Below, piece after piece: positions 43,111 through 45,533 of a stretch of 64,000 nt of DNA; the first letter of the stretch is position 1; the number at the start of each line of letters is the position of its first letter. The notes below the pieces were generated by a model. It saw nothing but the letters and a program-made list of their open reading frames with translations. It was not told where the DNA came from and did no database searches. This DNA comes from an uncultured delta proteobacterium (GTDB lineage Bacteria; Desulfobacterota; Binatia; UTPRO1): positions 451,064 to 515,063 of the forward strand of contig CAVZDH010000001.1 in NCBI GenBank assembly GCA_963774015.1, in the 5' to 3' direction. The position numbers were made by a program, and so were the translations under genes.

Positions 43111-45533
43111 CAGCGGAATCCGCATCCCGTAGAAGGAGCGGTACACGAAGACCAGGGACAGCGCGAAGAAGACGACCGCGAGGGTCGCGCTCGCGGCGCG
43201 CGACATCTCGATCGCGAGCTCGACCGCCGAGCAGGCCGAACAGGGTGGTGAACTTGATGATCGGGTTCATGGCCACCGACGAGGTGTCCTTGAACGGATC
43301 GCCGACGGTGTCGCCGACGACGGTGGCCGCGTGCAGCGGCGTGCCCTTCTCCTTGAGCTCGACCTCGACGACCTTCTTGGCGTTGTCCCAGGCGCCGCCG
43401 GCGTTGGCCATGAAGATCGCCTGGAAGAGGCCGAAGAGCGCGATCGAGATCAGGTAGCCGATGAAGAAGAACGGCTCGAGGAAGGCGAAGGCCAGGGTGC
43501 GAGAAGAAGACGGCCAGGAAGATGTTGAACATGCCCTTCTGCGCGTACTGCGTGCAGATCTCGACGACCTTCTTGCGAGTCCTCGATCGAGGCCTTCTCG
43601 GCGCCGTCGAGCTTGATGTTCGCCTTGATGAACTCGACCGCGCGGTAGGCGCCGGTCGCGACCGCCTGGGTCGAGGCGCCGGTGAACCAGTAGATCACCG
43701 CGCCGCCGGTGATCAGGCCGAGCAGGAAGGGCGGGTGGAGGAGCGAGAGCTTGTCGATGCTGCTCGGTGAGGCCGTGGGTCAGCACCATGATGATCGAGA
43801 AGATCATGCGTGGTGGCGCCGACGACGGCGGTGCCGATCAGCACCGGCTTGGCGGTGGCCTTGAAGGTGTTGCCGGCGCCGTCGTTCTCCTCGAGGAAGT
43901 GCTTGGCCGTTCTCGAAGTCGGCGTCGAAGCCGAAGTCCTTCTTGATCTCGTGCCTTGACGTTCGGGACGGTCTCGATCAGCGACAGCTCGTAGACCGAC
44001 TGGGCGTTGTCGGTGACCGGGCCGTAGGAGTCGACGGCGATGGTCACCGGGCCCATGCCGAGGAAGCCGAAGGCGACCAGGCCGAAGGCGAAGACCGGCG
44101 CCGGCGTGACCATCGCCGACCTGATGCAGAGCGCGTCGAGCCCGACGAGCGAGACCGCTAGGCGATGCCCATCAGCACGACGATGACCAGGCCCATCCAG
44201 TAGGCGGAGAAGTTGCCGGCGACGAGCCCGACGAGGATGTTCAGCGAGGCGCCGCCCTCGCGCGAGGCGGTCGACGACCTCGCGCACGTGGCCCGACTCG
44301 GTCGAGGTGAAGACCTTGATCACCTCGGGGATGATCGCGCCGGCGAGCGTGCCGCAGGTGATGATGGTCGAGAGCTTCCACCACAGCGTGCCGTCGCCGA
44401 GGTCGCGGGATCAGCAGGTACGAGACGACGAAGGTCACGCCGACCGAGACGATCGAGGTGAGCCAGACCAGGAAGGTGAGCGGCGCCTCGAAGTTCATCT
44501 TGTCGGCGTTGGCGTAGCGGCCGCGCTGCGATGCGCCTCGTTGATCAAGTAGGAGACGGCGCTGGCGACGATCATCATGATGCGCATGACGAAGATCCAG
44601 ACCAGCAGCTGCACCTGCACGGTCGGCGCTCGTGGACGGCGAGCAGGATGAAGGTGATCAGCGCGACGCCGGTGACGCCGTAGGTCTCGAAGCCGTCGGC
44701 GGTCGGGCCGACCGAGTCGCCGGCGTTGTCGCCGGTGCAGTCGGCGATGACGCCGGGGTTGCGCGCGTCGTCTTCCTTGATGTTGAAGACGATCTTCATC
44801 AGGTCGGAGCCGATGTCGGCGATCTTGGTGAAGATGCCGCCGGCGATGCGCAGCGCCGAGGCGCCGAGCGACTCGCCGATGGCGAAGCCGATGAAGCAGG
44901 GGCCGGCGAAGTCGCCGGGATGAAGAGCAGGATGCACGAGCATGAGCAGCAGCTCGACGCAGATCAGCAGCATGCCGATGCTCATGCCGGCCTTGAGCGG
45001 GATGGCGTAGGTCGGGTAGGGCTTGCCCTCGAGGCTGGCGAAGGCGGTGCGCGAGTTGGCGAAGGTGTTGATGCGGATGCCGAACCAGGCGACGCCGTAG
45101 CTGCCGCCGATGCCGACCAGGCTGAACGAGCAGGATCGACGACCACCTTCACCGCGCTCGAAGCTGCTGCAGGCACGCCGAAGTAGACGACCATGATCGC
45201 GCCGATGAAGACCTCGAGCATCAGGATGAACTTGCCCTGCGTGATCAGGTAGGTCTTGCAGGTCTCGTAGATCAGCTCGGAGATCTCGCGCATCGAGCGG
45301 TGCACCGGCAGGTTCTTCAGCGGATTGAATTGCATGAAGCTGAAGACGAGCCCGAAGCGCGCAGATGAGGCGCCCATCACCAGCAGCAGCGTCCAGCCGT
45401 CGAAGCCGAGAAATCGCTGCGAGGCGAGGTCCGGAAGGATCAGCTCGGCCTCGCTCGCGCCGGCGATGCCGGCGGTCGCCAACACCAATGCTACCGCTGC
45501 CAACAACGATGACGTTACACGTGCCCGAATCAT
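43111..45533 (-). pseudogene. hppA: K+-insensitive-type membrane H+-translocating pyrophosphatase gene disrupted by multiple frameshifts
   Basis: HppA-typical blocks occur in at least 5 different minus-strand ORF fragments: MREISELIYETCKTYLITQGKF, GGIFTKIADIGSDLMKIVFNIKEDDARNPGVIADCTGDNAGDSVGPTADGFETYGVTG, GPVTIAVDSYGPVTDNAQSV, GAYRAVEFIKANIK, NAGGAWDNAKK...VVGDTVGDPFKDTSSVAMNPIIKFTTLFGLL; removing one G near 43225 restores ...GLLAVELAIEMSRAASATLAVVFFALSLVFVYRSFYGMRIPLKK*. Confidence 0.8.

Follow-up and report, generated by a model that had tools for sequence, protein, structure and literature searches.

The multiply frameshifted hppA gene of a Binatia contig: most likely a consensus of mixed haplotypes rather than a decaying pseudogene

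Must a gene be regarded as dead when its reading frame is broken more than twenty times and a cluster of mobile elements stands beside it? The question is raised by hppA, the gene of a membrane-bound pyrophosphatase (PPase), in a 64,000-nucleotide stretch of DNA, hereafter the window, from an uncultured delta proteobacterium of the Binatia (assembly GCA_963774015.1, contig CAVZDH010000001.1, positions 451,064 to 515,063). A preliminary description of this DNA took the frameshifts as real pseudogenisation, while noting that a local assembly problem could give the same picture. Our analysis favours an answer close to the second possibility. From the internal evidence of the window and its relatives, the frameshifts most likely arose in the reconstruction of the sequence rather than by mutation, and with a probability of about three in four they are a mixed-haplotype consensus artefact, collapsed from two versions of hppA.

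The gene as written occupies 43102..45533 on the minus strand, from an ATG at 45533 to a stop at 43102, in a window with a G+C content of about 70%. It is 2432 nt long, which is not divisible by three, and it is split into about 14 frame segments; no uninterrupted frame of the kind expected of a functional gene runs through it, and in this respect hppA does look like a pseudogene. The earlier assignment of the fragments to a minus-strand H+-pyrophosphatase was confirmed. A translation of 807 aa, stitched by hand, matches Pfam PF03030 (H_PPase) at E 5e-181 over profile positions 3-644 of 645, and the frame-corrected protein scores 1434 bits against NCBIfam NF001950 (cut-off 826; profile positions 15-804 of 807). 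A protein search found intact homologues of 804-808 aa which are 85-86% identical to it over 100% of the length, in 'Deltaproteobacteria' or Binatia-like and Polyangiaceae metagenome-assembled genomes (MAGs) and in Sorangium. The best solved relative is 8b37, a K+-insensitive H+-pumping PPase, and judged by these matches the product belongs to the K+-insensitive H+-pump-like membrane PPases; its ion specificity is putative, as the names of homologues in the sources vary between Na+ pump and K+-insensitive H+ pump. No second copy of hppA was found within the 64-kb window.

How heavily is the frame disrupted? The multiple frameshifts of the preliminary description are real features of the written sequence and are more numerous than was counted then: about 22-24 one-base indels interrupt the gene, all of them in an indel-rich zone at 43228..45369 (minus strand) that is supported by both protein and nucleotide alignments. 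Frameshift-aware protein-to-DNA alignment to five references (P0001, P0003, P0005, P0019 and P0022) gave 20-23 frame events. Nucleotide alignment to the hppA genes of 19 relatives (L084, L085, L087 and 16 further genes) gave 17 inserted bases specific to the window together with two clean one-base deletions, and a further insertion at 43758 is visible in an alignment of five sequences. In total about 19 bases are inserted and about 5 deleted. When a Viterbi path under a codon-usage model was computed over the whole window, 14 segments with 13 frame switches fell inside 43105-45485, and a comparable density was seen nowhere else in the 64 kb; the earlier view that errors are far denser in hppA than in the genes next to it is thus borne out. 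The extra bases are located at or close to 45356, 45174, 45164-45163, 45137, 45128, 44935, 44533-44532, 44405, 44273, 44110 (approximately), 43951, 43909, 43808, 43758, 43576, 43499 and 43228. Bases are missing near 45369, 44917, 44635-44623, 44159 and about 44120. Some of these events form compensated pairs (a loss near 45369 with a gain at 45356, a gain at 44935 with a loss near 44917, and a loss near 44120 with a gain near 44110), which are easily missed by a reader because they are short. The single extra G that had been placed near 43225 is located at 43228 (CTC[G]GCG), and its removal gives back the canonical C-terminus, which ends in FGLLAVELAIEMSRAASATLAVVFFALSLVFVYRSFYGMRIPLKK followed by the stop.

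Where do the extra bases come from? Spontaneous indels in bacteria, as seen in mutation-accumulation studies, are mostly products of slippage in homopolymers, and more often deletions than insertions. The indels of hppA show neither property: they are biased towards insertion, and of the 17 inserted bases that were aligned, 15 stand outside homopolymers (run length 1). The comparison with orthologues, which had been suggested as a check on pseudogenisation, gave a result contrary to it. Every one of the 17 inserted bases is the alternative allele of the adjacent alignment column, an allele carried by at least two of the 19 relatives, and in every case the window itself has a different base at that column. 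For example at 45137 the window has GTC-G-ATC while relatives have GTC or GTG, so that GTC/GTG has become GTCG; at 43808 it has ACG-CA-TG while relatives have CTG or ATG, so that CTG/ATG has become CATG; and at 43576 it has TCG-C while relatives have TCG or TCC. Both clean deletions sit on variable third positions. To obtain a null expectation, the corrected gene was given 17 random non-homopolymer insertions and then aligned and scored anew by the full pipeline, in 100 runs. The fraction of insertions matching an adjacent alternative allele averaged 0.425 and was 0.72 at most, and a binomial estimate for 17 out of 17 against this null is about 5e-7. No methylation-like or slippery motif is common to the indel sites, which share only the ubiquitous CpG. 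A polymorphic position that is written twice or dropped is the product of a gap-tolerant consensus merging templates with different alleles, and to our knowledge no mutational process doubles adjacent polymorphic alleles. In all 17 insertions the extra base is what mixed haplotypes would leave, namely the other allele at a site where the templates differ, and doubling of this kind is the mark of a consensus made from mixed templates.

The scenario would then be as follows. Reads or contigs from two closely related versions of hppA would have been merged into a single consensus, the versions belonging either to two strains in the metagenome or to two copies of a promoter-leader-gene module in different genomic contexts. 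An indel-tolerant consensus step would have turned the single-nucleotide polymorphisms (SNPs) between them into one-base insertions and deletions, and a single polymorphic position would thereby have been written twice, or in a few places dropped. Errors are expected only where the two versions differ, so that they should be absent from a near-invariant leader, from context-specific flanks and from mobile elements. The error zone, 43228-45369, does lie inside the conserved hppA module, and the flanking genes, whose coding sequence was assessed, are clean. The module of promoter, leader and hppA is found in differing genomic contexts among relatives, which makes it a shared segment of the kind that an assembler collapses. 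A single frameshift in another gene of the window, hpnJ, indicates that the assembly bears lesions of the indel type. The organism or organisms would carry an intact hppA under selection, encoding an H+-pump-like PPase of the NF001950 type of about 806 aa, with the conserved leader attached. It has been reported that long-read assemblies carry indels which give frameshifted gene calls (PMC9262707), and that closely related strains get collapsed into consensus contigs (PMC8302730); the specific step from SNP to indel is our own inference. The preliminary mention of a local assembly problem was therefore close to the better explanation, except that the pattern points beyond mere low coverage to mixed haplotypes.

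Several observations weigh against this explanation. No paper was found that documents the doubling of SNPs in a mixed-haplotype consensus. There was also no sequence of the same species in the protein, genome and metagenome collections searched, and the artefact is inferred rather than observed: the best independent copies were 86% identical in amino acids for HppA by protein search, 81% for the stitched protein against genome contigs, 87% in amino acids for the neighbouring 879-aa gene, and 89% in nucleotides for hppA, while a wobble-tolerant DNA pattern made from the HppA N-terminus matched nothing in metagenome contigs. The reading frames in the remainder of the window are mostly clean, which requires a local cause for the errors in hppA. 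Moreover the neighbourhood shows what looks like genuine rearrangement, with a gene of 766 aa lost and mobile elements stacked up, and the window has a remnant of ahpF at another place; that genes of this genome really decay is thus not implausible in general.

Is hppA then a genuine recent pseudogene, which lost its function after mobile elements had rearranged the locus and which accumulated about 22 small indels? The frame is unquestionably broken, the density of frameshifts is unique to this gene, mobile DNA replaces the 766-aa gene with synteny on both sides unlike that of relatives, and the window holds other lesions in the hpnJ frameshift and the ahpF remnant. The ratio of substitutions to indels in bacteria is roughly 6-15:1 in mutation-accumulation studies. 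With this ratio, a gene that had fixed 22 indels neutrally should also have gained well over 100 substitutions, with dozens in invariant codons, and several nonsense codons. What is found is very different. The frame-corrected HppA keeps 367 of the 368 columns that are invariant in 120 intact homologues, and its lone mismatch falls in an ambiguous, doubly shifted stretch near 45170; intact homologues, each left out in turn, average 0.4 mismatches over such columns. Relative-rate counts, which used five sister sequences and three outgroups, gave 17-38 changes unique to the window lineage against 25-47 unique to the sisters. The hppA lineage of the window is not accelerated, and neither the invariant columns nor the relative rate gives any sign of relaxed constraint. 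No nonsense substitution was seen in the corrected frame by frameshift-aware alignment, the sole in-frame stop being the TAG produced by the one-base loss at 44159, and there is no multi-base deletion such as decay would leave, every event in hppA being of 1-2 nt. Conserved columns, relative rate and nonsense codons are three independent tests, and at the level of sequence comparison all of them speak against decay of hppA. The bias to insertion and the non-homopolymer context are opposite to spontaneous indel spectra, the inserted bases follow neighbouring polymorphic alleles without exception, and the promoter and leader of the gene are intact. In pseudogenes of the type found in Mycobacterium leprae, Shigella or Sodalis, substitutions, nonsense codons and larger deletions occur as well, and the indels tend to be deletions and to fall in homopolymers. 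hppA resembles them in its many disruptions, its adjacent mobile elements and its rearranged neighbourhood, but it shows no substitution decay, no nonsense codons, no larger deletions and no bias to homopolymers or deletions. The pseudogenisation proposed in the preliminary description is thus improbable.

A second alternative, which corresponds to the caveat of the preliminary description, is residual random error of long reads from a single haplotype, in a stretch of locally low coverage or without polishing. The damage consists of indels only, is biased to insertion, has a rate of about 1% and comes with essentially no substitutions, like a poorly polished consensus of noisy reads, and at least one sporadic frameshift (hpnJ) exists elsewhere in the window. 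However, random error would not be expected to coincide with adjacent alternative alleles at 17 of 17 sites when the null is 0.425, and the zone matches one conserved gene, with error-free sequence a few hundred bases off on both sides. The usual errors of long reads affect homopolymer length and are spread over the genome, while those of hppA are outside homopolymers, occur in one gene only and fall on polymorphic sites. This explanation is improbable, somewhat more so than that of a pseudogene. In comparison, hppA is like the frameshifted genes of long-read or strain-collapsed assemblies in its one-base indels, in its lack of substitution damage, and in lying on a segment common to related templates.

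It is also conceivable that the indels are real and that some templated process, acting locally, copied both alleles onto the same strand at many sites of mismatch, killing hppA in a single recent event. As a candidate, two diverged alleles of hppA, brought together by the adjacent mobile elements, might have undergone aberrant recombination or gene conversion. If true, such templated writing of two alleles would be a previously undescribed mutational signature, and we regard it as very unlikely. The idea that the sequence is correct and that hppA is expressed by recoding, through programmed frameshifting or insertional/deletional RNA editing, is compatible with the perfect conservation of coding information between the shifts and with the intact regulatory leader, but it was rejected as next to impossible, since it would require more than 20 shifts of both signs with no common slippery or stimulatory motif, leaves the doubling of alleles unexplained, and has no known bacterial precedent.

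A conserved upstream block at 45534..45760 (minus strand) is intact and near-identical to those of three relatives (L084, L085 and L086). Homology to the relatives ends near 45760, about 8 nt upstream of a conserved pair of boxes, TCGCAA and TAGACA, separated by 17 nt. Since the homology reaches past the box pair, the regulatory block has been left untouched by the mobile DNA. The earlier claim that an insertion sequence (IS) had inserted at the promoter side is therefore right as to the position of the mobile DNA, while the promoter and leader block itself is intact. A stringent scan for the sigma-70 consensus found no promoter upstream of hppA, and the TCGCAA and TAGACA boxes are taken as its putative promoter. 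No lesions like those of hppA were found in the 227-nt block upstream of the ATG in comparison with the relatives, and the block has hardly any polymorphism to double.

The leader within this block is about 190 nt long and better conserved than the coding sequence of hppA. Four elements make up its core, namely the P1 hairpin, whose loop reads GC(A/U)GAA, a variable hairpin, GGCGGCCAACC(A/C)CUCG(A/G)AACC as an invariant element, and a helix, CCUC...GGAGG, lying over the ribosome-binding site; the invariant GGCGGCCAACCACUCGAAACC element lies inside 45534..45760. The core precedes hppA in 13 distinct Binatia-like sequences, and it also stands upstream of hppA in Sorangium, Polyangium, a Polyangiaceae MAG and one Acidobacteriota MAG (loci L084-L099, L008, L014, L020, L067, L075 and L026). 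A scan with the leader motif found 12 further copies in metagenome contigs, the closest with 89% nucleotide identity. In the P1 hairpin 5 of 9 pairs are changed on both sides, and none of 500 shuffles reached the observed covariation score. A consensus fold supports the structure, and the covariance model R1 scores 157.9 bits on the leader of the window. The leader has no match in Rfam 15, either at the gathering thresholds or at E<=10, and a literature search for an hppA riboswitch returned nothing relevant. It may thus be a structured regulatory RNA and a candidate riboswitch-like regulator of membrane PPase genes, a lead rather than a result, from a sample that is small and phylogenetically clumped. 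As a possibly undescribed regulatory RNA it merits separate study.

What lies around the module? In relatives (GCA_020848745.1, GCA_020852955.1 and GCA_009612875.1) the gene order is hppA, a spacer of about 400 nt, a divergent gene of 766-771 aa, trmO and 6PGD. In the window about 5.4 kb of mobile DNA with lower G+C, 45760-51143, stands where the relatives carry the 766-771-aa gene, and neither this gene nor 6PGD has left any trace or remnant in the window when compared with the L084 and L085 loci. The synteny anchor on this side is trmO (51144..51632, plus strand; TrmO_N E 1e-33), whose product is 85-86% identical to TrmO of the same two loci. On the other side an intact surface-protein gene of the SdrD_B/DUF7450 type (39919..42558, minus strand; identified by protein search and tblastn) is directly downstream of hppA, while in relatives L081 and L083 the corresponding gene is found in unrelated contexts. 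The relative loci that were fetched share only the SdrD-like gene, hppA and trmO with the window. Because the neighbours on each side differ from those of relatives, both ends of the hppA module are synteny breakpoints, and the two breakpoints would fit a chimeric join made across a collapsed hppA.

The mobile-element hotspot beside hppA is real. Its first element on the promoter side is tnpA, an intact gene of an IS200-like Y1 transposase which is divergent from hppA (45844..46287, plus strand; PF01797 Y1_Tnp E 1e-40, positions 1-121 of 121). Two genes on the minus strand come next, each with a profile match and an open reading frame (ORF), one PIN_10 toxin-like (46668-47108) and one of the DUF433/HTH_66 type (47129-47896); together (46668..47896) they form a putative toxin-antitoxin pair. 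An ORF resembling a DDE transposase of the IS1 family (47977..48969, plus strand) has a weak DDE_Tnp_IS1 match with E 1.7e-6. The last element is a group II intron (49197..51130, plus strand), with RNA domains at 49197-49421 and 51009-51083 and a reverse transcriptase (RT) ORF at 49610-51130; it matches RF02005 with 180 bits, RF00029 with 41 bits and RVT_1 at E 8e-40. All of these frames are open, including the 506-aa intron RT. Codon usage is non-native over 45486-48078 according to the Viterbi path of the codon model, and no repeated IS copies were found within the window. A diversity-generating retroelement, or retro-processing by the RT of this nearby intron, was considered as a source of the damage in hppA and rejected, since the gene shows no substitutions targeted at adenine and is damaged by indels alone.

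Are the other genes of the window intact? For the two large ones which the preliminary description called intact, this holds. The 2.6-kb SdrD_B/DUF7450 gene (879 aa) has no frameshift relative to its relatives, with 87% identity at 100% coverage to P0121 and a single-frame tblastn match, and the 5.2-kb ORF (53759-59293) is open. Elsewhere in the window hpnJ has a lesion, and two further candidate lesions exist. The hopanoid-associated radical SAM gene hpnJ (9278-10749, minus strand) has a single frameshift near 9575 (9571-9585), adjoining G-runs. As written it matches TIGR03471 over positions 1-395 of 472 with 649 bits, and with the tail from the alternative frame fused it matches positions 2-472 of 472 with 727 bits. 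A remnant of ahpF at 4411-5337 (plus strand) adjoins ahpC (3829-4392). It keeps the N-terminal part, about 165 of 515 AhpF profile positions, and a 32-residue piece of the C-terminal end of Pyr_redox_2, so that some 0.9 kb would have been lost from its interior, and an aberrant tail follows that overlaps the next gene, 5060-7078; this could be real decay or misassembly. A repeat-rich secreted protein of 502 aa (37371-38879, minus strand) shows an apparent change of frame near 37590-37610, about 75 codons before its end, where the frame of the ORF gives an Arg-rich nonsense tail and another frame gives a plausible tail, GTIEALAPAGSLTARGKF...TLTPSCP followed by a stop. This seems to be a candidate lesion, seen without comparison to homologues.

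What does the finding mean for this organism? The corrected HppA is like known membrane PPases (PF03030/NF001950, 8b37) in its full-length profile coverage, its invariant residues and its length of about 806 aa, and unlike the intact NF001950 PPases it is written in the window with a frame interrupted more than 20 times. Despite the look of a pseudogene beside a mobile-element hotspot, hppA is probably intact in the organism. The value of the case is mainly cautionary. The tests used here need no reads, namely retention of conserved columns, a relative-rate count, homopolymer context, and a check for alternative alleles against a re-alignment null, and they could be reused to triage multi-frameshift pseudogenes in other MAGs. 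To call hppA lost would wrongly strip pyrophosphate-driven ion pumping from the metabolic reconstruction of this Binatia-like lineage.

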